Counted from the stretch's first letter, positions 282 to 53,237 are shown. The stretch is 64,000 nt of DNA from a virus (IMGVR_UViG_3300031760_000032:15788-79787), one strand, 5' to 3'. Made by a program: numbers and translations. The notes: generated from the sequence alone by a model not told the origin.

Positions 282-296
282 TATATTATTAACGTG
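282..296 (+). promoter_or_regulatory. Class A (early-type) phage promoter
   Basis: TATATTAT-taac-GTG followed by the aagaggtt/aacctctt hairpin and the RBS of gene 349. Confidence 0.65.
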
Positions 297-348
297 TAAG
301 AGGTTACCGTAAACGGTTATAAAGACTCCACAACCTCTTGGAGGTAAT

Positions 349-666
349 ATGAAAATATCCGACCAATATTATTTTATGAAAAAGGATTGTTCAATAAATC
401 TCGGACGGTTTCCATCCAGACACATCCAAGAAATTTTAAAACCGTCTGGTTCAATCCAAATGTACTGGACATCAGATACTCCTCATTTACTTGAGAAAGG
501 AATTCCTGGAGGAATTCTGTTCTTTAGTCTTGAGAGGCATAATCTTTATATAGATAAGATAGTAATAGAATCAGACTGCTGCTGTAAAGTGAACGTATAT
601 AAGAAAGGAGATAAGTATGTCATGAAAATTAAAGCTGTTATGAAAGGAGGCGAAAGCAATGGCTGA
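349..666 (+). CDS. Hypothetical protein
   Basis: GGAGG RBS, 105 aa, overlaps the next gene. Confidence 0.7.
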   Translation: MKISDQYYFMKKDCSINLGRFPSRHIQEILKPSGSIQMYWTSDTPHLLEKGIPGGILFFSLERHNLYIDKIVIESDCCCKVNVYKKGDKYVMKIKAVMKGGESNG

Positions 667-850
667 TAATATCAACATCAACGGAATCGATGAACATGGT
701 ATTTCATACTCACTATACTTAGATGAGTGTGAATTTTATGACGAAGAGCCGCTCAGTTATGACGAGTGGCTCGAACAGGAGAAGTATGAGCAGGAGCAAA
801 TTGACAGAATGCTCCTTACCGACTCTGAAAGGTATGGAGAGGAGGATTAA
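659..850 (+). CDS. Small highly acidic protein
   Basis: AAAGGAGG RBS; about one third D/E over 63 aa. Confidence 0.75.
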   Translation: MADNININGIDEHGISYSLYLDECEFYDEEPLSYDEWLEQEKYEQEQIDRMLLTDSERYGEED

Positions 851-867
851 CTTTTAGAGTCAAGAAG

Positions 868-900
868 GAAGGCGGGACTTTACATCCCGCCTTCTTTTTT
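868..900. terminator. Terminator between convergent genes
   Basis: gaaggcggga/tcccgccttc stem plus T run. Confidence 0.85.
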
Positions 901-1921
901 ATCGTCTTACCATTACTACCTTAATAGCACTTGTGATTTCTGTATCTGTATGAAGAGTAATCTTCTTGCTTTCTGGATTATAGCTCCACTTAATATCACT
1001 AGGAACACCTTCTGTAGTGATATTTGTTTTTTGTGTGCTATCCTTCTTAGCAATGATTTCATCATACTTATAATCAGATTCAGTTGCTTCAGATGTACCA
1101 AGTACGTGTAATTCGAATACACGATTTTCATGGTAATCTTCTACAAGCTTAGGAATGAGTACTTCTGCATCGATTGTTGTATCTGCCGCATTAACAGTAA
1201 TCTCATCAGAAATCCACATATAAGTACCCCAAGGATTCTTACCACAAAGCAGAGTTTCAAAGATTTCAGAGATAGTCATACCCTTAAGAGAATCTCCTTC
1301 TTTAAATCCACCCATAGGATATTTAACAGTAGAATTCAATACGGTCTTACCATCTGCAGTTTCACAAGCATAATCATCTTCTTCTACTCCATCCTTAGGA
1401 TATAACATAAGGCACATGAGTTGAGCAAATGTAAGCTTGCGGAATTTAGTACCCTTCTTAATACCACCTACAGATACAGTAGTACCATTTTCAGAAAGGT
1501 CTCTAAAGATATCTGCATCAGCGATATGCATAAGAATATGATTAAGTTCACCTTTAGTCACATATCTATTGTCTTCTTCCCAATGCATAGGATGAATACA
1601 TCTATCATGTGGTGGAGGTGGAGGAGGGCAAGGTTTAGGTGGTGGGCATTTACGTCCAGGAACAAAATAAGTATTTGGTACTGGATTAGGTTGTGCATCA
1701 TCATAACCGTCTACATAATAATCTGGTCTATATGGACCAGGAGTAGGTTTATCAGAGTAAGGTCTATTGATAACTTCTGGTCTCCTGAAATACTCTCTTG
1801 GATTTGGAGCAGGCTTAGGTGGTGGAGGAGGGCAACAACCATCATCCACACCAGAAACCAATTCAGGTTTATCATTATCAATGAAGGCACTCTCAAATTC
1901 ATCATAGAAATCGTTTGCCAT
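899..1921 (-). CDS. Putative tail-fibre-associated protein with Pro/Cys-rich N-terminus
   Basis: Two internal repeats (VGGIKKGTKF..TFAQLMCLMLYP / MGGFKEGDSL..TISEIFETLLCG) of a type seen in phage fibre proteins; CCPPPPP tracts. Confidence 0.55.
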   Translation of the reverse strand: MANDFYDEFESAFIDNDKPELVSGVDDGCCPPPPPKPAPNPREYFRRPEVINRPYSDKPTPGPYRPDYYVDGYDDAQPNPVPNTYFVPGRKCPPPKPCPPPPPPHDRCIHPMHWEEDNRYVTKGELNHILMHIADADIFRDLSENGTTVSVGGIKKGTKFRKLTFAQLMCLMLYPKDGVEEDDYACETADGKTVLNSTVKYPMGGFKEGDSLKGMTISEIFETLLCGKNPWGTYMWISDEITVNAADTTIDAEVLIPKLVEDYHENRVFELHVLGTSEATESDYKYDEIIAKKDSTQKTNITTEGVPSDIKWSYNPESKKITLHTDTEITSAIKVVMVRR

Positions 1922-1939
1922 ATGTCTTCACTCTCCTTT

Positions 1940-3070: not shown

Positions 3071-4600
3071 ACTAACACCTCCATTTATCCATTCCATTGA
3101 ACTGTAGCATTTGTTGCACCCCAAGGAGCACCAGATATACTTCCTTCAGGTTTATTTATAATAATAGATGTAAGAGATGTACATCCATTAAATGTTTTAC
3201 TACCAATATTGGTTACACTACTAGGAATAGTAATAGATGTAAGAGATGTGCATCCTTTAAATGCTTCATTACCAATATTAGTTACACCATCAGGTATAGT
3301 AACAGATGTAAGAGATGTACATCCATTAAATGTTTTACTACCAATACTAGTTACACCATCTGGTATAGTAACAGATGTAAGAGATTTACATCCACTAAAT
3401 GATTCATTACCGATACTAGTTACACCATCGGGTATAGTAATAGATGCAAGAGCTGTACATCCACTAAATGCATAAGCGCCGATACTAGTTACACCATCGG
3501 GTATAGTAATAGATGTAAGAGATGTGCATCCTCTAAATGCTTCACTATCAATACTAGTTACATCTTTAGGTATAGTAATAGATGTAAGAGATGTATTCCC
3601 TCTAAATACTCCACTACCAATACTAGTTACACCATCGGGTATAGTAATAGATGCAAGAGATGTACAACTCATAAATGCTTTATTACCAATACTAGTTACA
3701 CTATCAGGTATAGTAACAGATGTAAGAGATGCACAATTAGCAAATGCACTGTCACCAATACTAGTCACACCGTCAGCTATATCAATTGATGAGATAGTTC
3801 TTTCTATATATTCTTTTAGATAATCCATATCAAATTTTATAGAAAACATGTTTTCTGTAATAAAATTATATACACCATTAGCAGTAGGCACTTGTCTATC
3901 GGTACTACTCTCATCAATAGTAATGGTAACATCTTCGTTTTGAATCAGTATATTAGCACCCCAAGGATAACCAGTTCTAGATTTATAGTCTTCAAGTATT
4001 AATATATCACAATTACTAAATGCATTGTCACCAATACTAGTTACACTACTAGGTATAGTAATAGATTTAAGTGATGTACAACCATCAAATGCATTGTTAC
4101 CAATACTAGTTACTCTATTAGGTATAGTAATAGATATAAGGGATGTACAACCCATAAATGCTTTATTACCAATACTAGTTACACTATTATATATAGTAAT
4201 AGATTTAAGTGATGTACAACCAGAAAATACACCCTCACCAATACTAGTTACTCTATTAGGTATAATAATAGATGTAAGAGATGTACAATTTCTAAATGCA
4301 TTAATATCAATACTAGTTACACTATCAGGTATAGTAATAGATGTAGGAGATGTAATAGATTTAAGTGATGTACAACCATCAAATGTAGCTTCATTAATTT
4401 TAGTTACTCTATTAGGTATAGTAATAGATACAAGAGATGTACAACCCATGAATACACCAGCACCAATACTAGTTACACTATTAGGTATAGCAATAGATAC
4501 AAGAGATGTACAACCATTAAATGCAAGTTGGTCGATTTTAGTTACACTATTAGGTATAGTAATAGATACAAGAGATGTACAACCAGAAAATGTATCGCTA
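2470..4600. repeat. Imperfect 69-bp tandem repeats encoding the LRR units
   Basis: Recurrent ccaatactagttacaccatcaggtatagtaatagatgtaagagatgtaca units. Confidence 0.9.
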
Positions 4601-4947
4601 TAGATACTAGTTATACTTGTATTAGAACCTATAATAACACTTTTTGGTTTATTATTAGACTTAATATAAGTTTTAAAATCAGATAATGTATCAAACGTAT
4701 GTAGTGTTATTTCGTCGTCTATTACATTTATTTTCCCTTCATCAATTTTAAGTGTTTCTCCTTCGATATTACACCATTCTTCGCCGTTATAGTAATATAT
4801 TGAACCCATAGTTTCATCTTCATCAATTAGTAAACAAGTTCTACCTACGAATAAATTAGTGTCTGGAAGATTATAAACTTTTTCTGGGACAGCTAGTTTA
4901 ATTTCATTTCCCTGAAAATCTAAGCATGTGTTAATTTTCATATACAT
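3085..4947 (-). CDS. Tail-fibre-like protein with two BspA-like LRR blocks
   Basis: About 18 23-aa LRR units in two blocks; N-terminus similar to gene 1940-2380; internal STDRQVPTANGVY fibre motif. Confidence 0.85.
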   Translation of the reverse strand: MYMKINTCLDFQGNEIKLAVPEKVYNLPDTNLFVGRTCLLIDEDETMGSIYYYNGEEWCNIEGETLKIDEGKINVIDDEITLHTFDTLSDFKTYIKSNNKPKSVIIGSNTSITSIYSDTFSGCTSLVSITIPNSVTKIDQLAFNGCTSLVSIAIPNSVTSIGAGVFMGCTSLVSITIPNRVTKINEATFDGCTSLKSITSPTSITIPDSVTSIDINAFRNCTSLTSIIIPNRVTSIGEGVFSGCTSLKSITIYNSVTSIGNKAFMGCTSLISITIPNRVTSIGNNAFDGCTSLKSITIPSSVTSIGDNAFSNCDILILEDYKSRTGYPWGANILIQNEDVTITIDESSTDRQVPTANGVYNFITENMFSIKFDMDYLKEYIERTISSIDIADGVTSIGDSAFANCASLTSVTIPDSVTSIGNKAFMSCTSLASITIPDGVTSIGSGVFRGNTSLTSITIPKDVTSIDSEAFRGCTSLTSITIPDGVTSIGAYAFSGCTALASITIPDGVTSIGNESFSGCKSLTSVTIPDGVTSIGSKTFNGCTSLTSVTIPDGVTNIGNEAFKGCTSLTSITIPSSVTNIGSKTFNGCTSLTSIIINKPEGSISGAPWGATNATVQWNG

Positions 4948-5562: not shown

Positions 5563-5620
5563 TTGTTAGAATAGATAGGTGGAACTTTATAATAAAATGC
5601 TCAAAAGGAGGTATTCTCAT

Positions 5621-7459
5621 ATGCTTATTGACCAAGCTAAATTTATATATGACTTTACTACACCAGATGTAGAAGTAACAACAGAAGGTGCTTTATTAAA
5701 TGAAGCAGCAGCTACTTCAGAACATTTTAAAACTGAAGTACTTGATGTAGATAAGTTTATCAAGAATAATATACTTAAAGAAGTATCTAATCCTGTATTC
5801 TTTAATGGTCCAACTCCAACAGAAGATGGATTGTTAAGTAATGAAATCTTTGGTATCACTAAAGCTGAACGTGCTGGTATATATGCCTATATTAATCTAG
5901 GTGGTCAGTTTATTCAGCCATTAATCTATAAGACATTACTTAAACTCAATGGTAAAATCGCAGATGTAGTAAATGGTACAGATTATTTTATCATTAATGA
6001 TAAAGGAGAACTTGTACAGAGCGATGATGGTGATACTGGTATTGACTGGTTAAAGAAAAACTTCTCTAAGATTAAGTTTAAGAAGAATGAATCTGCATCT
6101 AGAAATAAGAGAATTGATTTTATTGAGAAAGTAAAAAATAAGATGTGGGTAGATAAGTGGGTTGTTATTCCTGCTTATTATAGAGACGTAGATACTAGAG
6201 ATGCTGGTATCGGTGTAGGTGAAATCAATAAACTCTATAGTAGCTTGATAATGGCTACAAAAGCACTTAAAGAAACATCTGGTTATGGTCTTACATTAAG
6301 TGATGTCACTAAAGCAAGAGTACAGAATATCTTAGTACAGATTTTTGACTGGTTTGGTAATGGTACTACTATTAATGGACAAGAAACTCCTGCTAACTTA
6401 CCTGGTAAGATGGGTCTTATTAAACGTGGTACATTGTATAAGACTATTGACTATTCTGCTCGTCTAGTTATGTCTGCTCCTGATGTAAGTGGAGAAGATA
6501 TAGATGACTTGATGATTGACATGGACCACTGTGCATTACCGCTTGCTGCAGCGCTTTGTTGTTTTAAGCCATTTATCATGTTCTGGTTAAGACGTTTCTT
6601 TGAGAATAGATTTGCTGGTAAATTAGAGTATCCTATTATGATTAATGATAAAGAGTCTGTCATGGTTCCTCTAGTAGACTATCAAATTGCATTTTCTGAT
6701 ATAGAGATTGATAAACAGATTGAACGTTTTATTCATGGCTATAGTAATCGTTTTATTCCTATTGAAATTCCAGTAGATAAAGAAGAGTTTGCTAGACGTG
6801 CTAAGAATCATCAAATAGTAGGAGCTATTTCTGGTAAAGAAATTAAAGATTTGAAAAATTTAAATTTTTGGATGGGATTTACTGGATATAAACTTAATAA
6901 TTCAGAAGAATATAAAGAGACTAAACAAGATTATTCAGAAACTCTTAAAGTAAATAGACGTATTACATGGTGTGATTTATTCTATATGGCAGCATGTGAT
7001 GTTACATCAGATAAGATGTGTCTTATTACTCGTTTCCCTATTGACTCTTATCTTAACCAATATCCTACAAAGGTTAGAATTAAATCTACAGTTAAAACTG
7101 CACCTATGGTTATTCAGTCTGACTTTGAAGATAATATGAAATTATATAAGTGGTATCCTGTTATTGAAGATACGGACATTAACTCTAATACATCTCCAGT
7201 ATTTGAAGATACTCTTTCTATTAGTAATGGTCTTATTGAAGCTATGGGTATGGACTATGATGGTGATACAGCAATTGTTAAACCAGTGTACACAATTGAG
7301 GCTAATCAGGAATGTGAAAAACAAGCTAACGCAAAGATTCAGGTTCTTGGTATGAATGGCTTCACTACAAGAGGTGTATCAAAAGAAAACATTCTTTGTC
7401 TATATGAACTTACTATTCATCCAGATAAAAGTGTTAAGTTTGTTAATCCAGAGTTCTAA
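5621..7459 (+). CDS. rpoC: Phage multisubunit RNA polymerase beta' subunit, N-terminal half with the catalytic site
   Basis: Motifs DGLLSNEIFG, VVIPAYYRD, LPGKMGLIK..KTIDYSARLV, FKPFI, ITRFP and catalytic GMDYDGD; ends soon after; start at 5621 after AAGGAGGT. Confidence 0.92.
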   Translation: MLIDQAKFIYDFTTPDVEVTTEGALLNEAAATSEHFKTEVLDVDKFIKNNILKEVSNPVFFNGPTPTEDGLLSNEIFGITKAERAGIYAYINLGGQFIQPLIYKTLLKLNGKIADVVNGTDYFIINDKGELVQSDDGDTGIDWLKKNFSKIKFKKNESASRNKRIDFIEKVKNKMWVDKWVVIPAYYRDVDTRDAGIGVGEINKLYSSLIMATKALKETSGYGLTLSDVTKARVQNILVQIFDWFGNGTTINGQETPANLPGKMGLIKRGTLYKTIDYSARLVMSAPDVSGEDIDDLMIDMDHCALPLAAALCCFKPFIMFWLRRFFENRFAGKLEYPIMINDKESVMVPLVDYQIAFSDIEIDKQIERFIHGYSNRFIPIEIPVDKEEFARRAKNHQIVGAISGKEIKDLKNLNFWMGFTGYKLNNSEEYKETKQDYSETLKVNRRITWCDLFYMAACDVTSDKMCLITRFPIDSYLNQYPTKVRIKSTVKTAPMVIQSDFEDNMKLYKWYPVIEDTDINSNTSPVFEDTLSISNGLIEAMGMDYDGDTAIVKPVYTIEANQECEKQANAKIQVLGMNGFTTRGVSKENILCLYELTIHPDKSVKFVNPEF

Positions 7460-7464: not shown

Positions 7465-7479
7465 TATATCATAATAGTG
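7465..7479 (+). promoter_or_regulatory. Class A promoter
   Basis: TATATCAT-aata-GTG followed by the gatgagagt/actctcatc hairpin. Confidence 0.6.
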
Positions 7480-7551
7480 ATGAGAGTAAATATATTATAC
7501 TTTCATGTATAGCCTCACTCTCATCCATACTATCCGAAAGGAGGTGTTAGT

Positions 7552-7584
7552 ATGGGTGACGGATTTGGAGGCTTCGTTGACTGA
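7552..7584 (+). other. Micro-ORF MGDGFGGFVD with a very strong RBS
   Basis: AAAGGAGGTG lies 5 nt before the ATG; stop at 7582-7584. Confidence 0.4.
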
Positions 7585-7689
7585 AAATATTAATATTAAT
7601 TCAGTCAAGCAAACGAGATTTTCAAAATTCTATTCTTTAGAAAGGAGCAAGAATTATGAGTAAACTATAACAACTCAAGTTTGAAACAA

Positions 7690-7724
7690 AACCCACACGC
7701 TCATCGGCGTGTGGGTTATTTTTT
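7690..7724. terminator. Bidirectional terminator
   Basis: aacccacacgc/gcgtgtgggtt stem flanked by A and T runs. Confidence 0.85.
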
Positions 7725-14115: not shown

Positions 14116-15696
14116 TCATACTTGAATAATAAATCTTAAGACTTCATCGATAAGAATATCTGATTCCATCTTAATATCCATACCATCAATATCCTTGTTA
14201 TAATAATCTATAACTTGGAATTTGCTACTAAGCATTGTTGCTACCAATGCTAGTATCTGTCTAATCTTCTTTTCGTCACCATTATACTTTTTCATGATTT
14301 CGTTATAGTATTCAGACTGTTCAAGTTTGATAAGCTCTTTCTTACAGAGAGTTGTTCTTTGAGAAATCTGAATAACATTACTTGCAAAAATATAAGGTAA
14401 CAGACGCATACCACTATTAAGCATATGACGTTTACCTGCGATTATAAGCGTAATATATTGGTCTGCATTAATAGAATTGATGCTTACTGTATCACCAAAA
14501 TACTTGTAAAACATGTTATTCACAAGATTCTGTTGGAATCTATTGATAACAGGTCTTCCATGTTTGGTGAGTTCTCTCTTATAATAATCAATCTCTGCTT
14601 GTTCAAATGGTCCAAACTTTGCAACGATTGATTCCATAATCTTCTCACATCTGAAGTCATTCTGAATAAGAAGAGATTCATCTGTCTTAATAAGATGAGC
14701 CTCGAACTTATCAATCTGAGAAGTATTATCTTCTCCATCTCTTTTACTACTACTGAGAGATGAATAGTCGTATTCATAACTGATATCAGAAATATTATAC
14801 TTGATATTATTACGAACACTTGATATGTTATAACTCACTATATTACCATTATAGGTATACTTAGGCATTACTTGCATAATAGTAGTATTGATAGCATCAT
14901 TCGAATTAATGGTAGGTGAGTATCCTCTAATCTCACTAATAGTCCAAAGAATCTTATTTGTCTTATAGTGAGATTGCATTGTTGTGCTTGCAGTTTCATA
15001 AAGCTTTGCATACATATCTGCAGGCTTTAATCCTCTAGCAGCCATTTTATCGAAGTCTACATATACTTCGAATAACCAATTGTATACAGTAAAGATAATC
15101 TCATGAATCTTCTCTGTAGAAGTGATTCGATTTCTGTATACAAAATGCATAATCAGTGGGATAAGCATATTCATAAAGAGACTCATCTCCATAAAATACT
15201 TACCGTGATTATTATTATACTGAAGTCCCTCATTACTTTTATTCTTGTAATTCAGGTCAAGCTGGTAATTTGTACTTACCATATTCCATGCTTTATTATA
15301 CATAGAATCTGACAGGATATATGTTTTAATATCGCTTAAGAAATCTTGAAGAGTATAAGCTCTAATAAGATTCCCATTATTATCAATAAATCCTGTGTCC
15401 ATAAGCTGCTTCATTCTAAACATATAGAACAGCAGCTCATGTTCTGAATCGAAATACTTTTCAAAGTAATTCATATACTGACAGATGTGAGCTCTAACTT
15501 CATCAGAGTTATAACATCTTTTCGGGGTCAGCATAAAGCTGTCCAGTACTTTGCTTTCTTCAATACCGAAGAAGCGAGATACTGGTAAGATAATTGCATT
15601 CTTACATTCTCTAAAAATTCTTTCCTCCTCTCTCGGATACCATTCATCTACTCTAGGTAGAAATGATGGTGACATTAATATTTCGTAAAGTTCCAT
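14116..15696 (-). CDS. Candidate sigma-like promoter-specificity subunit of the non-virion RNAP (AR9 gp226 / phiKZ gp68 type)
   Basis: 526 aa, helical; size, early-type promoter and recalled resemblance to this jumbo-phage family; not verified by search. Confidence 0.45.
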   Translation of the reverse strand: MELYEILMSPSFLPRVDEWYPREEERIFRECKNAIILPVSRFFGIEESKVLDSFMLTPKRCYNSDEVRAHICQYMNYFEKYFDSEHELLFYMFRMKQLMDTGFIDNNGNLIRAYTLQDFLSDIKTYILSDSMYNKAWNMVSTNYQLDLNYKNKSNEGLQYNNNHGKYFMEMSLFMNMLIPLIMHFVYRNRITSTEKIHEIIFTVYNWLFEVYVDFDKMAARGLKPADMYAKLYETASTTMQSHYKTNKILWTISEIRGYSPTINSNDAINTTIMQVMPKYTYNGNIVSYNISSVRNNIKYNISDISYEYDYSSLSSSKRDGEDNTSQIDKFEAHLIKTDESLLIQNDFRCEKIMESIVAKFGPFEQAEIDYYKRELTKHGRPVINRFQQNLVNNMFYKYFGDTVSINSINADQYITLIIAGKRHMLNSGMRLLPYIFASNVIQISQRTTLCKKELIKLEQSEYYNEIMKKYNGDEKKIRQILALVATMLSSKFQVIDYYNKDIDGMDIKMESDILIDEVLRFIIQV

Positions 15697-15731
15697 ATAA
15701 ATACCTCCTATTCATATAGAGATTGTATTTA

Positions 15732-15746
15732 CGCAATAATAGTATA
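15732..15746 (-). promoter_or_regulatory. Class A promoter
   Basis: TATACTAT-tatt-GCG on the - strand. Confidence 0.55.
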
Positions 15747-15751
15747 CAATC

Positions 15752-16597: not shown

Positions 16598-16612
16598 TAT
16601 ACTATATCTATG
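16598..16612 (+). promoter_or_regulatory. Class A promoter variant
   Basis: TATACTAT-atct-ATG followed by the atgataga/tctatcat hairpin. Confidence 0.5.
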
Positions 16613-16653
16613 ATAGACAATCTATCATAAAATTTTTTAAGGAGGTACTTATT

Positions 16654-17571
16654 ATGAGTACAAAAATTCTCGACATTATTAAAAATGCAGACCCTAAGAA
16701 GGATATAATCACCCTTGTTACACATAAGGGTAAGTTTCATTCTGATGATGTAATGGCTACTGCTATTCTTAAGATTATCTTTGAGAAGGAACTTAAATTC
16801 AAGACAAATCTTGTACGTACTTTTACTCCTAAAGAGGATGGTTATGATGATGATACTCCTAATACTGTAGTATATGATATCGGTCTTGGTCAGTATGACC
16901 ATCATCAGATAGGAGAAGATGCAAAGCATTGTATCAGACTTGACAAATATCTGGACGAATATGGTATTGAACATACAGCTATCAGAAAACATGCTGCAGT
17001 TGGTCTTATTTGGAATGAGATTGGTATACAGTGGATTGGAGAGAAATATGCCCCTGTAATCTATGATTCTATTATCCGTTCCATTGATGACCACGATAAC
17101 GGATTTGGTCATAATCCTTTATCTACACTTATCAGTAATTTTAATCCAAATATCCTTAATCCTACAGATGAGATGTTTGATGAAGCTTTCAATAAAGCTG
17201 TTTCTCTCTGTATTAGTTTCTTTATGCGTACTATTACTCATTATAGATTTATTCAGAGATGTGAAAAAACTCTTGTTGCTGAAGCGGATAAAAGTGATGG
17301 AGTGTGCCTTATAACAGATTATTATTTACCTGGAGCTGATGATATCTGTAGAGAAAGAAATATCCCATTTTATGTATATCCGAATCAGAGAGGTGGATGG
17401 TGTTTCAAAACTATCTCTGTATCCGCCGAGGATATGAATACACACCTCTGCGATATTCCTGATGATGTACGTAACTGGGAAGGTGTAACATTCCTACATC
17501 CTAGTTGCTTCCTTGGCTCAGCTGTAACTAAGGAAAGAGCAATTGAGATTTGTCATAAAATCTATTCTTGA
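16654..17571 (+). CDS. MYG1-family (UPF0160) DHH-type exonuclease
   Basis: THKGKFHSDDVMA and VYDIGLGQYDHHQ signature motifs. Confidence 0.85.
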   Translation: MSTKILDIIKNADPKKDIITLVTHKGKFHSDDVMATAILKIIFEKELKFKTNLVRTFTPKEDGYDDDTPNTVVYDIGLGQYDHHQIGEDAKHCIRLDKYLDEYGIEHTAIRKHAAVGLIWNEIGIQWIGEKYAPVIYDSIIRSIDDHDNGFGHNPLSTLISNFNPNILNPTDEMFDEAFNKAVSLCISFFMRTITHYRFIQRCEKTLVAEADKSDGVCLITDYYLPGADDICRERNIPFYVYPNQRGGWCFKTISVSAEDMNTHLCDIPDDVRNWEGVTFLHPSCFLGSAVTKERAIEICHKIYS

Positions 17572-20389: not shown

Positions 20390-20404
20390 TATATTATATT
20401 AGCG
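20390..20404 (+). promoter_or_regulatory. Class A promoter
   Basis: TATATTAT-atta-GCG followed by the cgatagt/actatcg hairpin. Confidence 0.65.
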
Positions 20405-20451
20405 ATAGTACATAACACTATCGTAAAATATTTTGAAAGGAGCATGTTATC

Positions 20452-21946: not shown

Positions 21947-21961
21947 TATATTATATTTGTG
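21947..21961 (+). promoter_or_regulatory. Class A promoter
   Basis: TATATTAT-attt-GTG followed by the gtgatagga/tcctatcac hairpin. Confidence 0.65.
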
Positions 21962-22015
21962 ATAGGACCCAGTTCCTATCACAAATATTTTATCTAGAAA
22001 GGAGGTGTCTTCATA

Positions 22016-30257: not shown

Positions 30258-30271
30258 TATTTATATAATAT

Positions 30272-30304
30272 TAAGGTGAGTAGCAATGCTACTCACCTTA
30301 TTTT
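30272..30304 (+). terminator. Intrinsic terminator
   Basis: taaggtgagtagc/gctactcacctta stem plus T run. Confidence 0.85.
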
Positions 30305-32373: not shown

Positions 32374-32388
32374 TATATTATTATTGTG
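32374..32388 (+). promoter_or_regulatory. Class A promoter
   Basis: TATATTAT-tatt-GTG followed by tatggg/cccata pairing. Confidence 0.65.
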
Positions 32389-32473
32389 ATATGGGAGTCA
32401 TAAACCCTATCCTGTGGAGGACCGCTAGCCCATAGAGGCACTATAAATTTATTATGGTCCAAGAGCAGTACCT

Positions 32474-33658
32474 ATGAGGTATATTATGAAAAAGGTTATC
32501 ACCATTAAAGGGGACCTCATCCCCACTTTTATAACTAAAATTGACGGTGTCGGTGTCGTCGATACAGCAATCATGAGAATAAGAGTAAAGGATTTGAAGT
32601 TTCTGCCCATAGAGGCCAACCCTCGCTCTTTTCATGATGGTACAACAACAAAGAAAATAGAGCATACAATAGTTCAGGAACCAGAACTTTTTGAGGTTCT
32701 AAATCGTGGCATGACTATTGTATGCTCTGATTGTATCTACGATAAAGGGGAAGTGTCCTTTATATTCACAGACAAAAATCAGGGTCTCGTGGATGGAGGA
32801 CATAGCTTTAATGTTGCTATGAGAAACTCTGATTCTAACGCAAAAATCATTGCCAAAATTATTTATGGTGATGGAGCTGCTATCCTAGCAAATAGAATTG
32901 CAGAGACGTTCAATACGTCTGAAAAGGTTTCAGAAATGTCATTAAATAACCTTAAAGGTTATTTTGATTTTATCAAGAAAGAAATATTAAATCAACCATA
33001 TTTCTTTGATATTAAGTGGGAAGAGAATGCGAAAAAGAGAATTCTCTCCACTAGAATAGTAGGATTAATGAATTCCTTTGACCCTGATAGATGGGGTCAT
33101 GGGGATGTATGCGAAAAAGCTCCAACTGATTCATACAATTCTGCACGTCATACACAAAATGACTATGCAAAGATGTATGAAAATTTTGGGGAGACTATAG
33201 ATAATCCCTATTATGCATTAAAAAATGTAATAGTCCAGATAATCGATTTATTCGATTGGACTGAACAAAATTTTGTCAGATTATATAATAAGGTGGGAGG
33301 ACGATACAAAAATATCACCGTAACACTACCTGATAAGACTAAAGTAAAATTGGTTGAAATTGATAAGAACAAGAAGTTCAAATCAACTTTTTATGGTCAA
33401 AATTTGCCAGGCTATATTCCTACATCTCTTATCTATGCAATTATTTCTCCTATGAGAATTCTTTTACAAAGAGATGGAAATGGGTTCTGGCAATTCACCA
33501 CTGACCCAAAGCAAATCATAGAGGCAATAGGTCCTCAGCTAATTAAGTATGCACTGTCATACTATTCCATATGGAATCCGAATGCGGCTATGAAGGACCC
33601 CAAATTTTGGGTCTATCTATATGATAAAACAATTTTATTAAAAAATCAGATGAAGTAA
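32474..33658 (+). CDS. AIPR-family protein
   Basis: ANPR, PELFEVLNRGMTIV and GLVDGGHS motifs. Confidence 0.8.
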   Translation: MRYIMKKVITIKGDLIPTFITKIDGVGVVDTAIMRIRVKDLKFLPIEANPRSFHDGTTTKKIEHTIVQEPELFEVLNRGMTIVCSDCIYDKGEVSFIFTDKNQGLVDGGHSFNVAMRNSDSNAKIIAKIIYGDGAAILANRIAETFNTSEKVSEMSLNNLKGYFDFIKKEILNQPYFFDIKWEENAKKRILSTRIVGLMNSFDPDRWGHGDVCEKAPTDSYNSARHTQNDYAKMYENFGETIDNPYYALKNVIVQIIDLFDWTEQNFVRLYNKVGGRYKNITVTLPDKTKVKLVEIDKNKKFKSTFYGQNLPGYIPTSLIYAIISPMRILLQRDGNGFWQFTTDPKQIIEAIGPQLIKYALSYYSIWNPNAAMKDPKFWVYLYDKTILLKNQMK

Positions 33659-33667
33659 TATTGTTTT

Positions 33668-33700
33668 AGAAGGGCTGTTCCACTCCAGCCCTTCTTTTTT
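33668..33700 (+). terminator. Intrinsic terminator
   Basis: agaagggctg/cagcccttct stem plus T run. Confidence 0.85.
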
Positions 33701-43008: not shown

Positions 43009-44712
43009 ATGGTTTATTCAAACGTAGTAGAAAAGGAAGCTCTGAGACGTGTTCAGAGCGAAACACTCGCTGTAATCTCAGATGCACTTCTGAAGTCTTT
43101 TGGACCTTATGGTTCTAATTCTATTATTGGTAAGGATGGCGCACTTTCTAGATATACTAAAGATGGTCATACTATTCTTTCTAATCTTCAGTTTGTAGAC
43201 CCAATTGCAAAGGCTGTACATGCTGATATCGAAGAGGAAACACTTGCTCAGGCTAAGAAGGTCGGTGATTCTACAACAAGTATTACACTTCTTTCTTCTG
43301 CTATCTTTGATGCTCTTGCTGGTTATGAAAAAGAGCACAATTATAGACCAGCTTCTATCGTAAAGGCTTTCAAGAATGTAGCTGAAATGATTAAGAATAA
43401 GATTAAGGATTATGGTAGAGAAGCTACTATCGAAGATATGTATAATATTACTCTTATTGCTACTAACGGCGATGAGAACCTTGCTAAGATTCTTAATCAG
43501 GTATACAAAACATATGGTCTTGATGTATATATTGACGTTAAAGCATCTATGAATGGTACTACCTATCTTAAGGAAATCAATGGTATGACAATGGAGTGTG
43601 GTTTCCTTGACCCTACTCTTATTAACGATACTACAAAGAATACAGTAGACATTAAGAATCCTAAGATTTATGCATTCAAGGACCCAATTGATACAGCAGA
43701 GATGGGTATGTTCCTGGATGCTATTCTGGTAAAGAATATTCTTAAACCTATCAGTGAAAAGAAGCCTGAGAATGTAGTACCCACAATTATCATGGCTCCG
43801 AGAATCTCCAGAGATTATTCTGCATATATGGATACTCTGATGGCTTCTATTGCTCAGACACCTGCAGCAAATCGTGGTATTCTAAATATCATCACTGATA
43901 TTCAGGGTTGCGATATGGAACAGTTCGAAGATATTTGTGACCTTTGTGGTTGTAAGTATATTAAGAAGTATCTTGACCCTGAGATTCAGAAGAAGGATAT
44001 CGAATCTGGTCTTGCTCCTACACCAGATAATATCGAGACTTTTGCTGGTGAAGCAGAACTTGTATCTTCTGATGCATATAAGACTACTTTTGTAAATCCT
44101 AAGAAGATGTTTAACTCTAATGGTGAGCATTCAGAGCTTTTCAATCAGAGAACAGATTATCTTCAGAAGCAGATTGATAAGCTGACAGTAGAAGGTAATA
44201 CTACTACAGAAATCTATACTCTTAAGAAGAGACTCAATTCTCTTAAGGGTAAGATGGTTGAAATCTATATCGGTGGTGTTACTATCGCAGACCGTGATGC
44301 AGAACGTGACCTTCTTGAAGATGCAGTACTTAACTGTCGTAGTGCAGCAATTAACGGTGTAGGATATGCAGCAAACTTCGAGGGTTATAGAGCAGCGCTG
44401 TCTGTAACAGAAGATGAGCTTACTGGTATTGAAGCTGATATTGCAGATATTCTGGTTAAGCAGTATTATGAAATCGTATATGCTTTATATGATAGTGTAG
44501 GAGAAGAGGAAATTGATAATCCTCATGAGATTATAGAACAGTGTATCGTTCATGGTTGTCCTTACAATATTACTACTGGTAAGTATGATGGTAAGGTTCT
44601 AACAAGTATTGATACAGATATCTGCATCATTGATACTATCTCTAAGATTATCACTATCATGGTAACTGCAAACCAGTTCATTCTTCCTACAATCAATATG
44701 AATAATTATTAA
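43009..44712 (+). CDS. groEL: Phage GroEL-like chaperonin
   Basis: KSFGPYG, TKDGHTIL and VGDSTTS (GDGTTT-like) motifs; 567 aa. Confidence 0.9.
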   Translation: MVYSNVVEKEALRRVQSETLAVISDALLKSFGPYGSNSIIGKDGALSRYTKDGHTILSNLQFVDPIAKAVHADIEEETLAQAKKVGDSTTSITLLSSAIFDALAGYEKEHNYRPASIVKAFKNVAEMIKNKIKDYGREATIEDMYNITLIATNGDENLAKILNQVYKTYGLDVYIDVKASMNGTTYLKEINGMTMECGFLDPTLINDTTKNTVDIKNPKIYAFKDPIDTAEMGMFLDAILVKNILKPISEKKPENVVPTIIMAPRISRDYSAYMDTLMASIAQTPAANRGILNIITDIQGCDMEQFEDICDLCGCKYIKKYLDPEIQKKDIESGLAPTPDNIETFAGEAELVSSDAYKTTFVNPKKMFNSNGEHSELFNQRTDYLQKQIDKLTVEGNTTTEIYTLKKRLNSLKGKMVEIYIGGVTIADRDAERDLLEDAVLNCRSAAINGVGYAANFEGYRAALSVTEDELTGIEADIADILVKQYYEIVYALYDSVGEEEIDNPHEIIEQCIVHGCPYNITTGKYDGKVLTSIDTDICIIDTISKIITIMVTANQFILPTINMNNY

Positions 44713-44764: not shown

Positions 44765-45220
44765 TCAAATTAAATCATTAAATGAACCACAGAAGCGGTT
44801 CATTTTCTGAAGTGAAACCCACATATCGAGAAAGCATTCTTCTGATTTTTTATTACCATCTACCGCTTCTTTAAAAAGACAGAAGATGGTATTTTCAACT
44901 TGCTCACCGAAAGGACGAGCAAGCTTTATAATCGCCGAGCAATAGCAATCGTCGGCGTTAACTACTCCTGAAAGCTCCCTAATTAAGCTAGGGAACTTAT
45001 TCGAGTGGCTCTTAGCATAACGAGCTACATTAATGATGTCTCTACCAGTTCCGCTGCATATGAATTCTACAGCGTTTTCAAAATTGTAATTATCATCATT
45101 GGCAGAGTCCTCGACTCGCTCGACTACAGCGTTTCCGTCTCTGCAGACATAGACGTATCCATCTACTACAAAGACGGACACATTACTTGTTTTTACTACA
45201 ACCTTAACTTCTCTAGCCAT
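44765..45220 (-). CDS. Hypothetical protein with atypical, GC-richer codon usage
   Basis: AAAGGAG RBS; many CG-containing codons compared with neighbours. Confidence 0.7.
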   Translation of the reverse strand: MAREVKVVVKTSNVSVFVVDGYVYVCRDGNAVVERVEDSANDDNYNFENAVEFICSGTGRDIINVARYAKSHSNKFPSLIRELSGVVNADDCYCSAIIKLARPFGEQVENTIFCLFKEAVDGNKKSEECFLDMWVSLQKMNRFCGSFNDLI

Positions 45221-45442
45221 ATTTATGACTCCTTTGGATAAATTTACTCCTATTTCAGGAGCATAGATAGTTGTTCTGGTTTTAAAGGCTATTCCAGAAA
45301 CCTAGGACGCAACTCCTCTTAGATAGTCTCTCGGTACTTTTAGTGTAGTATGGCTGTCGCTAAGCCTCTACCGAGAGTCCGTGAGTAAAAGATAATGAGT
45401 GGTTCGATGTGACGGCATCGAGATTTATTATCTCTTACTCAC
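45221..45442 (-). ncRNA. Candidate structured 5' leader or ncRNA
   Basis: Five consecutive hairpins between a class A promoter and the RBS. Confidence 0.5.
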
Positions 45443-45454
45443 TTATATTATATA
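45440..45454 (-). promoter_or_regulatory. Class A promoter
   Basis: TATATAAT-ataa-GTG on the - strand. Confidence 0.6.
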
Positions 45455-45501
45455 CATACCAAATATTAAACTTTTACAATCTCGTTATCTTTGATTTCCA
45501 G

Positions 45502-48049: not shown

Positions 48050-48064
48050 TATATTATTTTAGTG
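48050..48064 (+). promoter_or_regulatory. Class A promoter
   Basis: TATATTAT-ttta-GTG followed by the tgtaag/cttaca hairpin. Confidence 0.65.
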
Positions 48065-48098
48065 TAAGCAAGACTTACAAATATATTTTGAAAGGAAG

Positions 48099-48836
48099 AT
48101 GTATATGCCAAACTGGTGTAACAACTTTATCACATTCTGGAGCGATGGAACTCCAGAAGGAAATTGTGCTTTAATAGATTTGCACAATAAAATGGAACAA
48201 GTCGCTAAACTTATGCAACAAATCTGTCCTGAAAACAGAGATTTATGGGAGGTGTATTTAGCTAAATACGGATATGGTGTTGATATTTCATGCTATCAGC
48301 GTGGCTATATCTATTGGATAAGTGATATAGTCGGAAATGGAGAAGAATTTAGCATCGAGTGTGAAGATGCTTGGGCTCCTAATATTCAATTCTGGCAAGC
48401 TTTACTATGTTACTTTTATCAGAATAGAGTATCATTTACATTTCAGGCATCTGAGCCTGGTATGCAAATATATGAAACTAATGACTGGGGTATTCTGCCC
48501 AGATATAATGTCAATATATATGCAGAAGGTGTAGATGAATTATTAAATTTCGATAAACTTTGGAATTGGGATAATCCATTGTTTCCGAGAATTGATAATG
48601 ATTATGTAGATAATGCTCAAGGTGAATGGACAAATTATCCTCATTTTCATGAGAATGGTATTATTAGTATATATGAAGATTATCAATCACCTAATACTGA
48701 TTATAATCCTGGATTATTCTGTGATATTAATACTGTTAGATACGTTAACCTAGAAGTTAGATTTGATACCAGTGTAGAATCTGAACCAATCTATGATAAT
48801 TTTACAACATTTTTAGGAGGTGACTCTAATGAGTAA
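48099..48836 (+). CDS. DUF1281/YubB-like ferredoxin-fold protein
   Basis: MPNWCNN N-terminus, EDAWAP and SEPG motifs. Confidence 0.6.
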   Translation: MYMPNWCNNFITFWSDGTPEGNCALIDLHNKMEQVAKLMQQICPENRDLWEVYLAKYGYGVDISCYQRGYIYWISDIVGNGEEFSIECEDAWAPNIQFWQALLCYFYQNRVSFTFQASEPGMQIYETNDWGILPRYNVNIYAEGVDELLNFDKLWNWDNPLFPRIDNDYVDNAQGEWTNYPHFHENGIISIYEDYQSPNTDYNPGLFCDINTVRYVNLEVRFDTSVESEPIYDNFTTFLGGDSNE

Positions 48837-50717: not shown

Positions 50718-50721
50718 AAAT

Positions 50722-50753
50722 AACGGGGTGTATAATACACCCCGTTTATTTCT
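50722..50753. terminator. Bidirectional terminator
   Basis: aacggggtgta/tacaccccgtt stem. Confidence 0.85.
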
Positions 50754-50757
50754 TGTT

Positions 50758-51444
50758 TTAAAACATAAGTCCGAATTGACGTTGACATAGCTTAGCATTA
50801 TAGTATGTGTATACAACTCCCATAAATGCTCTATAACAGTTCTCAATGAATTCGTATTCATCTGGATTACTGAATGTCAATGGAAACTCTCTGAAGTTTG
50901 GTTCTTCTTTATCAAACTGAAGAATTAAACAACCTTCAAGATTGATATTCTTTTTTATATAGATTAGATATCTATATGCGGCTAACTGCATAAAGTATTT
51001 ATAACCTACATGATTAGATGTCTTAAAGTCTACCATATACGGTTTGTCGTCAATGCTAATGAGTAAATCATATGTTCCTGCAAAGAACTCACCTACCATA
51101 GGTTCTTCTTGACCTAGGATTCTTATTCTATGACAATTATTAATACCTTCCCACCATTTCTTAAATGCTTCTAAGCATACGTTAGGATGTTCTACTTTCT
51201 TTCCCTTTAGATACTTCTCAATAGATTCATGCACCATAGTACCAAACTCAGCAGCTTTCATAGCAACTTCTCTATTATCTAATCCTTGTCTACCAATTCT
51301 ATTAGCCCACCCAATAAGACCTTCTGTATCAATAAAAGATAATAGTTCTGTTACACTTGGAACACCTCTACCATTGTATGTATATCTTGCTTTTCTCTTA
51401 TTAAAGACTGTTAAATCGTTAAGCAATAATTCTGGGTCTAACAT
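50758..51444 (-). CDS. PD-(D/E)XK (RecB/Cas4-like) exonuclease
   Basis: PSVTELL, GTMVHESIE, AGTYDL, VDFKTS and QLAAY motifs. Confidence 0.85.
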   Translation of the reverse strand: MLDPELLLNDLTVFNKRKARYTYNGRGVPSVTELLSFIDTEGLIGWANRIGRQGLDNREVAMKAAEFGTMVHESIEKYLKGKKVEHPNVCLEAFKKWWEGINNCHRIRILGQEEPMVGEFFAGTYDLLISIDDKPYMVDFKTSNHVGYKYFMQLAAYRYLIYIKKNINLEGCLILQFDKEEPNFREFPLTFSNPDEYEFIENCYRAFMGVVYTYYNAKLCQRQFGLMF

Positions 51445-51494
51445 AGTAAGAATCTACTCCCTTCATTACAATAATTTAATAGTAAGTTGAATCA

Positions 51495-51509
51495 TATATT
51501 ATTTATGTA
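51495..51509 (+). promoter_or_regulatory. Class A promoter variant
   Basis: TATATTAT-ttat-GTA followed by the gagag/ctctc hairpin. Confidence 0.5.
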
Positions 51510-53237
51510 ATGGAGAGACTTACTCTCAATCTAAATATGAAAGAAGGAATCGATGTGGAAATGAATGACCCTCGTATGGAAAATCTTCGTAGGGCAGCTG
51601 GAGTCACTAGACAGCAAAGTCAAGCGATTATGAATCAGCTTAACTCTATGAATGATGAAGAGGTCAATTTGTTATTAAGCGAAAATGAAGAACTGAGAGA
51701 TTTTATCTCAGTAGATGCAGACAAGGATAATAGTGGCATCGTTGTCAATTATGCAAATCAGCCACAAAACGAAAACAATCAGATTACATTCCAAGCACCA
51801 TGGGAAGGTAATCTATCTGTAGGAGGAGGAACAACATCTCCTCAAACAATGAATCTGTTCCAGTCAAATGGTTTGTTTGGAAACATTTGGAACTGGGGAC
51901 AAACAGATAAAAGAGTCCAGGTATATAATCAGCATCCTGGAATGAGACTGTATAATATCAATCCTTATCAGTTCTTAGATGAGAATGATTTGATTGATTA
52001 TTATAATGCACTTGAACAGCAAAGAGAAAAGAATGAGAACCTCAACTATGTCTTCTGTAGACTTGGAGCTAGATTAGATGGTTCTGATGAAGCCTTTGAA
52101 TGGGCAGAGCAGTTCAAGTTTAAGCCTGCTGATGATATTGTTAAGGAGCAGTATGAATCAAGACAGAGAGCAGAAGAAGAAAGAAGAAAAGAACTCTATG
52201 GAGAAGATGGTACTAGAACAGTATATAATGTTTATGATGCTAACGGCTATCGTCTTCAGAGAGCTTGTGGTTTCAAACTTGTAAATCTTGAAACAGGTGA
52301 AGTTGTAAAGGAGGTTAAATATCGTAAGGACGAAAACGGTCAGTCTTACGAGATTCATTCTATGACAGAAGACCGTAAACTTGCATATGAAATTCAACAG
52401 ATTCATGCAGCATTCTATCAGGATGCAAGATTTAAAGAAGTATTTAGAAGACTCTTTAATCAGGACTATTTTGGTAATATTGCTAAGTGGGAGGGTTGGA
52501 AACAAGCAGGTCTTACCAAAGCTGAAATGTATACTCTGTATGAAGACGAAAGAGTAGACTGGAAAAAGCATGAGAAGCTTATTAATAGAGCTCTCATGGC
52601 AGCATCATATTCTAGAGAGAAGTTTAATGATATCCTCAGAAAGTGTTGTCATTGTGAGTTGGACTATGCTAATAAGTCCAGCTTCTTTAGTCTGTCTTAT
52701 GACTTCGAGAGAGATTTACATTATAAGAGACTCACATCTACACCTGAAGAAATGCAGAATGACCCAATGGTACATTCTAAACTTCAGCAGGAATATGAAA
52801 TCAAGCGTAAGTTGTTCATGGATAAAGTGAACAGTGGTAATTTGGGATGTAATATGATGATGGATGCAAACTATCATCCTACTTTCCCGAAGCCAAATAT
52901 CGAGAGTCTTACACTTGAAGATTTTAACAAGCCTGAGAATCAAATAATGTATACTCAGATTGTCACACCTGAAATAGCAACTCCGAATATGTTCATTCCA
53001 GATAACAAAACTAATGATAAGCCATTGTCAAGAGAGGAGATACTTGCAATGAATGGCGTTAAACTGGATGAAAACGGACAAGTTATACCACAACAAAGAA
53101 CCATTGGTTATATGACTGTAGATGATGATACAGGTCAGATTATATCTCAGCAAGAGTTTGATGTAGCAGTTGGTAATCAAGGTAACACAGCAAGTAATGA
53201 CATGACAGACGAAGAACTAATCAATGCTGGTTTCTAA
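51510..53237 (+). CDS. Hypothetical protein; true start probably 45-55 nt downstream
   Basis: Long ORF; shares KLVNLETGEV with the next gene. Confidence 0.8.
   Translation: MERLTLNLNMKEGIDVEMNDPRMENLRRAAGVTRQQSQAIMNQLNSMNDEEVNLLLSENEELRDFISVDADKDNSGIVVNYANQPQNENNQITFQAPWEGNLSVGGGTTSPQTMNLFQSNGLFGNIWNWGQTDKRVQVYNQHPGMRLYNINPYQFLDENDLIDYYNALEQQREKNENLNYVFCRLGARLDGSDEAFEWAEQFKFKPADDIVKEQYESRQRAEEERRKELYGEDGTRTVYNVYDANGYRLQRACGFKLVNLETGEVVKEVKYRKDENGQSYEIHSMTEDRKLAYEIQQIHAAFYQDARFKEVFRRLFNQDYFGNIAKWEGWKQAGLTKAEMYTLYEDERVDWKKHEKLINRALMAASYSREKFNDILRKCCHCELDYANKSSFFSLSYDFERDLHYKRLTSTPEEMQNDPMVHSKLQQEYEIKRKLFMDKVNSGNLGCNMMMDANYHPTFPKPNIESLTLEDFNKPENQIMYTQIVTPEIATPNMFIPDNKTNDKPLSREEILAMNGVKLDENGQVIPQQRTIGYMTVDDDTGQIISQQEFDVAVGNQGNTASNDMTDEELINAGF

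Follow-up and report, generated by a model that had tools for sequence, protein, structure and literature searches.

Ten intergenic sites that share a class A promoter motif are most likely early promoters for the virion RNA polymerase (vRNAP) of an AR9-like giant rumen phage, and we consider it probable that their transcripts open with a hairpin acting at the RNA level, with stabilisation of the 5′ terminus as its likeliest role. Early timing, the polymerase used and the exact start site are what we infer from sequence; the public metatranscriptome runs located for relatives are at contig level. The 64,000-nt stretch of DNA analysed here (the window) is part of a ~220-kb jumbo phage encoding split multisubunit RNA polymerases.

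The original prediction listed eight exact occurrences of TATAYHAT-N4-GYG, all of which are present, and its enrichment stands against both backgrounds: eight matches compare with 1.01 expected in window shuffles and 0.10 in AT-matched intergenic sequence (first-order Markov). The two relaxed sites on that list are genuine as well, with ATG at 16598 and GTA at 51495. Scored with a weight matrix (PWM) built from related phages alone, the ten sites reach 12.2–30.3 bits, while the 99th percentile of TATA-carrying window positions under the same matrix is −1.6 bits. All ten are intergenic and codirectional with the next gene. An unbiased scan returned one further probable site, whose +1 is 30278, and another two beyond the window, which in window numbering lie at −485(+) and −12229(−). 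Overall, 13 class A copies lie on the contig and 27–32 in each complete relative, intergenic and codirectional; the genes downstream are patchy and fast-evolving. The sites in the window, with predicted start positions (+1), PWM scores and fold z values, are the following.

282..344, + strand: class A promoter with conserved leader RNA motif; 25.5 bits, z −1.27; TATATTAT at 282-289, predicted +1 G at 296, P1/P2 at 297-340 running up to the SD, gene 349-666.
7465..7525, + strand: class A promoter with long-range 9-bp 5′ stem; 20.8 bits; +1 at 7479, stem 7479-7525 (−15.0 kcal/mol, z −4.51); only micro-ORFs downstream in the ORF list.
15693..15746, − strand: class A promoter of a g226-like gene; 17.3 bits, z −2.54; TATACTAT at 15746-15739, +1 at 15732, AR9-g226-like RNAP subunit gene 14116-15696.
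16598..16626, + strand: class A promoter with 6-bp flush hairpin; 12.2 bits, z −2.24; +1 at 16612, hairpin 16612-16626, MYG1-family gene 16654-17571 (Pfam PF03690).
20390..20422, + strand: class A promoter with flush hairpin; 18.4 bits, z −1.93; +1 at 20404, hairpin 20404-20422, gene 20452-21078.
21947..21980, + strand: class A promoter with 7-bp flush hairpin; 28.9 bits, z −3.09; +1 at 21961, hairpin 21961-21980, gene 22016-22261.
30264..30294, + strand: probable additional class A promoter; 17.5 bits in this register, z −4.18; +1 at 30278.
32374..32411, + strand: class A promoter with bulged flush hairpin; 30.3 bits, z −0.25; +1 at 32388, hairpin 32388-32411, 98-nt leader, AIPR gene 32486-33658 (Pfam PF10592).
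45221..45490, − strand: class A promoter of the TAAAAGTT-N14 subclass; 25.4 bits, z −7.67; +1 at 45440, 14-bp flush 5′ helix 45383-45440, ~220-nt structured leader, gene 44765-45220.
48050..48078, + strand: class A promoter with 5-bp flush hairpin; 22.0 bits, z −4.02; +1 at 48064, hairpin 48064-48078, gene 48105-48836.
51495..51527, + strand: class A promoter whose predicted +1 (51509) is A (G in relatives); 14.7 bits, z −0.60; hairpin 51513-51527, from +5.

The site at 30264 was absent from the original list. Its flush hairpin is also the terminator stem of the upstream gene, and it was flagged as terminator-like.

From 5′ to 3′ the element consists of an A-rich patch near −30 (−31 to −29 in the logo), T(−16) R(−15), TATAYWAT at −14 to −7, a four-base W spacer and G(−2) T(−1) G(+1) A(+2); of 194 unforced sites, 134 have G at N6+1. 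In the triplet of the original prediction the best-conserved G is the last base and not the first. The logo and the unforced triplet counts both favour a promoter. Class A matches AR9 TATATTAT-N6-G(+1), and the transcript would therefore start at the last G of GTG. In AR9 the early consensus AAATATATATTAT-N6-G+1 is vRNAP-dependent (Lavysh et al. 2017, PMC5312081). The hallmarks of vRNAP early promoters are found here: an AT-rich element near −10 with a G 6 nt downstream, two split RNAP sets, and tens of copies between genes, pointing the same way as small early and nvRNAP genes.

Genes in the window are homologous to AR9 g145 (vRNAP β′ N) and g226 (nvRNAP subunit), and the complete relatives G001 and G002 carry two Rpb2_6 (β-like) loci plus a further Rpb1_2 (second β′-like) locus. 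The RNAP subunits are homologous to those of AR9 at ~20–33% amino-acid identity. Site 15732(−) immediately precedes the g226 homologue, just as g226 in the AR9 record follows an annotated early promoter. Late promoters of the AR9 type, AAC(A/T)-N6-TA (AACA-N6-TA), are also present, with leaders peaking at 25–29 nt. Together with the geometry shared with AR9 and phiKZ, these homologues favour the earlier assignment of the sites to a virion RNAP. The accompanying picture of plug-in accessory modules holds in part: it fits the MYG1, AIPR and 208-aa genes, which are terminator-flanked single-gene units (the AIPR unit is missing from one relative), but class A also precedes the conserved g226-like RNAP subunit gene and a conserved 575-aa gene.

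That the sites are instead host sigma-A-type (−10 or extended −10) promoters served by the host RNAP is highly improbable. With TATATT spanning −12 to −7 and transcription starting 7 nt further on, the sites do resemble a bacterial −10 element in geometry. A sigma-70/sigma-A promoter, however, would carry either TG at −15/−14 or a −35 TTGACA 16–18 bp ahead of its −10. The class A logo has no −35 element beyond its A-rich patch, and the positions conserved here, T(−16) R(−15) and G(−2) T(−1) G(+1), do not belong to the sigma-A type. A scan for sigma-70-type matches gave 120 against 97 ± 11 in shuffles, weakly above expectation, and the class A sites were not among the good matches; we accordingly did not count them as sigma-70/sigma-A promoters. 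In AR9, moreover, transcription from the same motif is independent of post-infection protein synthesis and was attributed to the vRNAP (PMC5312081).

Eight of the ten window sites (282, 7465, 16598, 20390, 21947, 32374, 45440(−) and 48050) have a predicted stem from +1 or +2 onwards, and seven of the ten have fold z ≤ −1.9; folding at 282, 32374 and 51495 is not individually better than in shuffles. The expected stem at or near the triplet is thus present in these eight and, from +5, at 51495, which has orthologous sites in G003 and G005, but 15732(−) is without a simple hairpin. There the pairing of the 5′ end spans the ribosome-binding site (SD) region, and orthologues of this site in more distant relatives have flush hairpins. 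Hairpin statistics were pooled over 134 sites from five genomes, with positions relative to the inferred +1. Folding energy peaks for segments starting at −4 to +1 (−7.0 kcal/mol, 4.5 below shuffles) and the peak has vanished by +5. Counted from the predicted +1, 81 of 134 sites (60%) have their first nucleotide in a pair, and in 106 of 134 pairing begins within 5 nt. Flush hairpins occur at 58% of sites versus 12% in shuffles, 29% at other intergenic G positions and 20% at random G positions (p = 7e-10), and at 7% of late-promoter 5′ ends. The original prediction had named a comparison with intergenic positions as a test, and it withstood it. In the distant relative G006 the frequency is 69% versus 7%. 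Stems are typically short, with medians of 8 bp and −7.6 kcal/mol, rich in AT, and lie within the first ~20 transcribed bases.

Structure is kept at these sites while sequence is not, as had been proposed: orthologous sites retain a stem, and the stems differ in 11 of 18 groups. Orthologues of 16598 keep the hairpin with different stems, and the 48050 orthologue carries a compensatory change (GUAAG/CUUAC versus GUAGA/UCUAC). The stems are not, however, as unrelated as first described, since GATA/GAAT/GTAA recurs as a conserved beginning of the 5′ arm. Folding favours the sense over the antisense strand at 98 sites and the reverse at 33, with a mean difference of −1.37 kcal/mol versus −0.42 in shuffles, and the stems show an excess of G-U pairs. 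About a quarter of pattern-defined sites are without a flush stem, and at four hairpinless sites in relatives, one of them from G001 and three from G006, the transcript would begin with the SD itself.

The inverted repeat could alternatively be part of the promoter or initiation signal of the virion RNAP, loosely as in phage N4, either as DNA structure or as a nascent-RNA hairpin aiding promoter escape or RNA release. How jumbo-phage vRNAPs recognise their promoters is not known (PMC7598289), the stem is position-locked to +1, and some palindromes extend a few bases upstream of it. We nevertheless regard such a signal as improbable. Palindromes reaching −2 number 17 versus 8.3 expected, from which the actual start may lie 1–2 nt further upstream, but pairing extended to −1 equals the permutation expectation. 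Sense-strand bias and G-U excess point to a role at the RNA level. Some class A promoters of relatives are stemless and start at the SD, and homologous promoters elsewhere also do without the stem: flush hairpins occur in 7% of AR9 early transcripts versus 5% of shuffles, with no energy peak; folding of the homologous promoters of Listeria phage LPJP1 gave no 5′ hairpin; and phiKZ early promoters have no 5′ structure peak. N4 does share an injected phage polymerase and a promoter-tied inverted repeat. Its hairpin, however, is extruded DNA upstream of +1 that serves a single-subunit vRNAP of ~3500 aa, whereas the class A stem starts at +1 and runs downstream, has an RNA strand bias and accompanies multisubunit polymerase genes. 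We therefore rejected an N4-type hairpin promoter, and the structural promoter element suggested originally is not supported.

In the first 7 nt beyond the stem A makes up 50–71%, and U becomes enriched no earlier than positions 8–11; what had been described as a recurrent aaatatttt is a spacer of biased composition, first A-rich and then U-rich, and no fixed element. The same composition bears on whether hairpin and U-rich tail form an intrinsic terminator or attenuator that yields short 5′ RNAs, a reading that is extremely improbable. A terminator scan flags three sites (20402-20424, 21953-21988 and 30272-30300), and 5′UTR-derived sRNAs have been reported in phage 201phi2-1 (PMC11512511). 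However, real terminators of this genome have GC-rich stems of 10–14 bp followed immediately by a T run, whereas ~7 A-rich bases separate the short class A stems from the U-rich patch. With these post-stem bases and three sites flagged, we did not class the hairpins as intrinsic terminators.

The 282-type leader differs from the simple class A hairpin. This motif combines conserved sequence with covariation (on A1/A2 and model R1), includes an invariant UAUAAAG and a 4-bp hairpin, and occurs in 16 copies before unrelated genes; its P1 helix pairs an SD-like arm with an anti-SD-like arm and ends 0–7 nt before the real SD. Leaders of the TAAAAGTT subclass are long, structured and multi-copy, and comparison of the 45440(−) leader with Rfam gave no match. 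Both leader types, and the pairing across the SD at 15732(−), would suit 5′ structures that are regulatory operators on early promoters (sites bound by a protein of phage or host, or switches that hide or expose the RBS) and not passive stabilisers, and that set translation or a timed shut-off of early messages. This reading is unlikely. In most hairpins only the first 4–5 bases are common, and these are promoter-imposed; loops are free and stems variable, a poor fit to a sequence-specific operator, and the SD lies 16–22 nt past the stem in an unstructured A/U spacer (median leader 52 nt). In a reading that we hold equally unlikely, the lineage would control its early regulon after transcription by means of leader RNAs fused to the promoters, among them the 282 and TAAAAGTT classes. 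If so, a phage or host factor binding such leaders could time translation or decay, or the leaders may mark self transcripts to be spared by a phage-induced RNA degradation system.

Protection of the 5′ end, the role that we favour, is consistent with a stem flush at the predicted 5′ end, with the sense bias and with conservation of shape and not sequence. The injected virion multisubunit RNAP would read class A sites and start at the last G, and the first ~20 nt would fold into a stem of ~8 bp from RNA nucleotide 1–2, followed by the A-rich/U-rich spacer and the SD. The paired triphosphate end would leave RppH-type pyrophosphohydrolases, and likewise 5′-end-dependent RNases (RNase J1, Y or E), without the single-stranded 5′ terminus on which they depend, and the first phage messages could thus survive while host RNA is degraded. 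BsRppH requires two or more unpaired 5′ nucleotides, and 5′ structures stabilise mRNA (PMC3997798). At most class A sites, given the inferred start, the stem begins ~0–4 nt from the transcript 5′ end. An SD at the 5′ end, as at the hairpinless sites, is another known type of 5′ stabiliser. Absence of the hairpin from AR9, LPJP1 and phiKZ indicates that it is lineage-specific and dispensable for vRNAP promoters, and its benefit must then be host- or lineage-specific.

RppH and 5′-end-dependent RNases are blocked by a stem that begins 0–2 nt from the 5′ end. Known 5′ stem-loop stabilisers include the E. coli ompA and papA leaders and B. subtilis 5′ stabilisers (PMC3997798). The class A leaders resemble the ompA/papA type in a stem 0–2 nt from the 5′ end, an unstructured spacer and a strong SD. 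Those stabilisers are single-gene cases, however, whereas here the stem is tied to a whole phage promoter class, its 5′ arm is partly dictated by the preferred initial sequence of the promoter, and the stabilising function is a predicted one. With phiKZ and 201phi2-1, class A shares an AT-rich 8-mer near −10 (core TATATTAC, vRNAP), TG/G six bases downstream and, for phiKZ, the same 8-mer-N6-G geometry, as well as conserved positions near −20/−30 and tens of copies before small early genes; it differs in the last base of the 8-mer, which is C there and T here, and those phages have a Gram-negative host. AR9 has an upstream AAATA extension where class A has T(−16) R(−15) and the A-rich patch near −30 (TAAAAGTT in the subclass), and GT at −2/−1 is conserved in class A. 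Otherwise the AR9 likeness extends to an identical TATATTAT core at an equal 6-nt distance from the G start, the same initial bases GATA/GAAT/GTAA at its early promoter sites, and an early site before the g226-type nvRNAP subunit gene with AACA-N6-TA late promoters alongside.

The 79.8-kb contig that contains the window lacks terminal repeats, and its relatives in IMG/VR are 212–225 kb long, carry direct terminal repeats and share 76–97% identity in their beta' proteins. The contig is thus a fragment of a jumbo phage of ~220 kb. Terminase and endolysin genes, as well as all genes in the following list, were assigned by PHROG and tblastn.

3085–4947, BspA-type LRR protein
5579–7459 (+), beta'-type subunit of a jumbo-phage multisubunit RNA polymerase
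14116–15696 (−), homologue of AR9 g226, a non-virion RNA polymerase subunit
43009–44712, GroEL-like chaperonin

The best cultured relatives of the beta' subunit, at ~30% identity, come from Listeria phage LPJP1, Staphylococcus jumbo phages and the Bacillus BpSp/AR9/PBS1 group; its match in AR9 is g145, which is annotated as a subunit of the virion RNA polymerase (vRNAP). In each of two complete relatives, a second beta'-like locus accompanies two beta-like loci. Neither a tRNA scan nor Rfam at gathering threshold found anything in the whole window, and a near-identity search of the phage collection gave no match to it. Near-relatives were found in bovine gut metatranscriptome and metagenome runs, and the phage probably comes from the rumen or bovine gut. 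Of eight public runs with hits, four were compared, all at contig level: two metatranscriptomes (RNA) and two datasets labelled metatranscriptomic but probably DNA; their sequences share 90–95% identity with the window over a low share of its length. Our comparison set comprised the whole related phages G001, G002, G003 and G005, the more distant G006 (46% identity) and the jumbo phages AR9, LPJP1 and phiKZ.

The original prediction listed ten class A sites in the window that follow or approach the pattern TATAYHAT-N4-GYG, and these prove to be genuine: a weight matrix trained on the relatives alone, with the window left out, recovered all ten at 12–30 bits and added one site in the window (+1 at 30278) and two outside it. 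The expected enrichment over shuffled and AT-matched sequence was found as well, with eight occurrences of the pattern against 1.0 expected in window shuffles and 0.10 in first-order-Markov intergenic sequence; for G002, the latter comparison gave 18 against 0.24. Across five genomes, 134 intergenic sites are codirectional with the next gene. The logo consists of an A-rich patch at −31 to −29, T(−16), R(−15), TATAYWAT, W4, G(−2), T(−1), G(+1) and A(+2). When the triplet was left unforced among 194 sites, GTG (81), ATG (24) and GTA (15) were found, so that the last G, the predicted transcript start, is the best-conserved base. Pattern matches at −11163(+), outside the window, and at 47580(−) were rejected as promoters, and a match at 47577 sits behind a late-type promoter. 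Four TATATTATG contexts (8664, 29916, 32480 and 40330) were likewise rejected, being spacers between Shine-Dalgarno sequence (SD) and ATG. The promoter of the g226-like gene lies between the arms of an inverted repeat at 15732–15750 (AGATTGTAT / ATACAATCT), which gives TATACAAT on the opposite strand.

In AR9, the early promoters assigned to the virion RNA polymerase have been mapped by both dRNA-seq and primer extension, and their consensus is AAATATATATTAT-N6-G(+1) (PMC5312081). Class A shares this core and the distance to the G, and its initial transcribed bases (GAAT, GATA, GTAA, GATT) match those at AR9 early promoter sites. The same geometry recurs at phiKZ sites (TATATTAC-N4-NTG). In the AR9 record an early promoter is annotated directly before g226; the g226 homologue of the window lies directly behind site 15732(−). 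Ahead of many other genes we found a second promoter class, AAC(A/T)-N6-TA, with a sharply peaked distance and leaders of 25–29 nt, which equals the late-promoter consensus of AR9, used by the non-virion polymerase. Examples are:

5583, 17623, 21123, 23101, 33719, 36598, 45502, 49418, 57531 and 61506 (+), AAC(A/T)-N6-TA
5562, 10425, 16567 and 40366 (−), AAC(A/T)-N6-TA

Sigma-70-type matches exceed shuffles only weakly (120 versus 97 ± 11), and the logo contains no −35 element, both of which speak against a host-promoter reading of class A. Together with the AR9 and phiKZ geometry, the initial bases, the placement of g226 and the late motif, this makes the assignment of class A to early promoters of the virion polymerase, as originally proposed, well supported by comparison with homologous systems. 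The promoter findings further suggest conservation of the entire AR9-style early/late code in the clade. In AR9, the late consensus requires uracil in DNA; its counterpart here may therefore hint at a uracil genome.

Class A sites are coupled to a hairpin at the predicted 5' end of the transcript. Since counts of perfect stems with G-U pairs allowed gave too high a background in AT-rich DNA, energy-based profiles were used, in which 36-nt segments were folded in sliding steps over the 134 sites. They show a single sharp peak for segments starting at −4 to +1 (mean −7.0 kcal/mol, 4.5 below shuffles) that is gone by +5; a weaker second peak near −60 corresponds to upstream terminators. When RNAs were folded from the predicted +1, 81 of the 134 had their first nucleotide paired. 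Stems starting at or near +1 (flush hairpins) occur at 58% of sites versus 12% of shuffles, 29% of other intergenic G positions and 20% of random G positions (Mann-Whitney p = 7e-10), in line with the anticipated excess over random intergenic positions. They occur at 7% of late-promoter 5' ends, and in G006 the figures are 69% versus 7%. The ten window sites have fold z values from −7.7 to −0.25, with seven at or below −1.9. At site 15732(−), the simple 5' hairpin is lost in the three closest genomes and kept in more distant relatives.

The hairpin is under structural selection: as foreseen, its position is kept and its sequence is not, with a flush stem of different sequence in 11 of 18 orthologous groups. 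One orthologous pair reads GUAAG/CUUAC versus GUAGA/UCUAC, a compensatory change, and the stems ahead of MYG1 read GAUAGA, GAUAUG or GAAUAGGAU. At 98 sites the sense strand gives the more stable fold, against 33 for its reverse complement (mean difference −1.37 kcal/mol; shuffles −0.42, random windows −0.03), and G-U pairs are commoner on the sense strand; this points to an RNA structure rather than a DNA cruciform. The hairpin thus appears to act at the RNA level. Extension of pairing to −1 is at permutation expectation and to −2 modestly above it (17 versus 8.3).

The hairpin had also been proposed as a structural element of the promoter itself. This part of the prediction is not supported, since no structural peak at the start was present in AR9 (30–33 sites), LPJP1 (29 sites) or phiKZ (28 sites), and four class A sites in relatives (G001 6744(+); G006 114151(+), 156505(−) and 33037(−)) start directly at the SD without a stem, reading G+1 AAAGGAGG. 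The stem is therefore dispensable for the promoter and lineage-specific, occurring in genomes G000–G006. In 68 short-leader cassettes (median leader length 52 nt), a hairpin of ~22 nt (median 8 bp) is followed by about seven A-rich bases, a U-rich patch and an SD 16–22 nt past the stem. The spacer described as 'aaatatttt' is thus present, but as a compositional A-rich/U-rich stretch.

The leader of site 282 (window 296–344 (+)) differs from this generic hairpin in being a sequence-conserved motif with covariation. Copies were sought with a covariance model; ten and then sixteen in the clade, 15 of them in relatives, align over 52 positions. The motif contains a 7-bp stem P1, whose 5' arm is SD-like and whose anti-SD-like 3' arm ends 0–7 nt before the real SD, a 4-bp stem P2 with a WAAA(A) loop and an invariant UAUAAAG downstream of P2. 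Of the alignment's cells, 99.4% are paired, and six pairs show changes in both partners; covariation scores 0.494 versus 0.178 in shuffles (0/500 reach it) and near 0 when partners are slid. TATAYHAT precedes every copy but one, and the downstream genes are mostly unrelated. The motif was not found in AR9, LPJP1 or G006, and Rfam at E <= 1 gave nothing for the 282 and 45440 leaders beyond a chance miRNA match (E 0.63). The 282-type motif is a candidate new cis-regulatory RNA. A further class A subclass (window 45221–45490 (−)) carries TAAAA(G/C)TT 14 nt upstream of the TATA motif and starts with GAATAG/GAGTAAG. Its leaders are long (100–240 nt), GC-richer and multi-stem, with several near-identical copies per genome before different genes (multi-copy in G001, G003 and G005). 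At 7465–7724 (+), immediately behind the vRNAP beta' gene's stop codon, a class A promoter and a strong 5' stem have micro-ORFs alone downstream; the unit may encode a small RNA or a micro-peptide.

The original view of class A as driving plug-in accessory modules fits part of the genes. MYG1 (16654–17571) and AIPR (32486–33658), both confirmed by Pfam, and a 208-aa gene are single-gene units with terminators on either side. One related-strain contig skips exactly 32274–33686, i.e. the promoter, gene and terminator of AIPR, which suggests an insertion/deletion polymorphism. Genes behind class A are patchy and fast-evolving relative to late genes, but two conserved genes, one for the g226-like subunit and one of 575 aa, are among them. 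Class A is therefore an early regulon broader than accessory inserts. Elsewhere, in the ORF-poor stretch 26201–28192, contigs of two metatranscriptome runs join 27012 to 27878 and skip 865 nt holding ORF 27039–27497; either a spliced intron that carries a homing-endonuclease gene or an insertion that relatives lack could account for this.

Bacillus subtilis RppH requires two or more unpaired nucleotides, and a stem flush with the triphosphate 5' end is a geometry that blocks RppH and 5'-end-dependent RNases (PMC3997798). By analogy, flush stems would deny these enzymes access to early messages. Stabilisation of such messages is the likeliest role of the hairpin, to which we would give about an even chance; regulatory operator, promoter element, host promoter and attenuator are each less probable. 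If the hairpin is a stabiliser, it shows how a phage with an injected polymerase protects its first messages from 5'-end-dependent decay in the host, and it would offer a compact promoter-plus-leader cassette for expression work.

In the literature searched, we found no publication on early transcripts of jumbo phages that carry 5' hairpins as a class, which does not prove that none exists. The less expected part of our findings is the coupling of a whole promoter class to a 5'-terminal hairpin that is absent from two model phages. In conclusion, these data extend an early-promoter class known from phiKZ/AR9-type phages to ~220-kb jumbo phages of an uncultured clade; the promoter is a new member of this known class, and it stands out as a variant by its systematic hairpin at the 5' end and by the leader motif.
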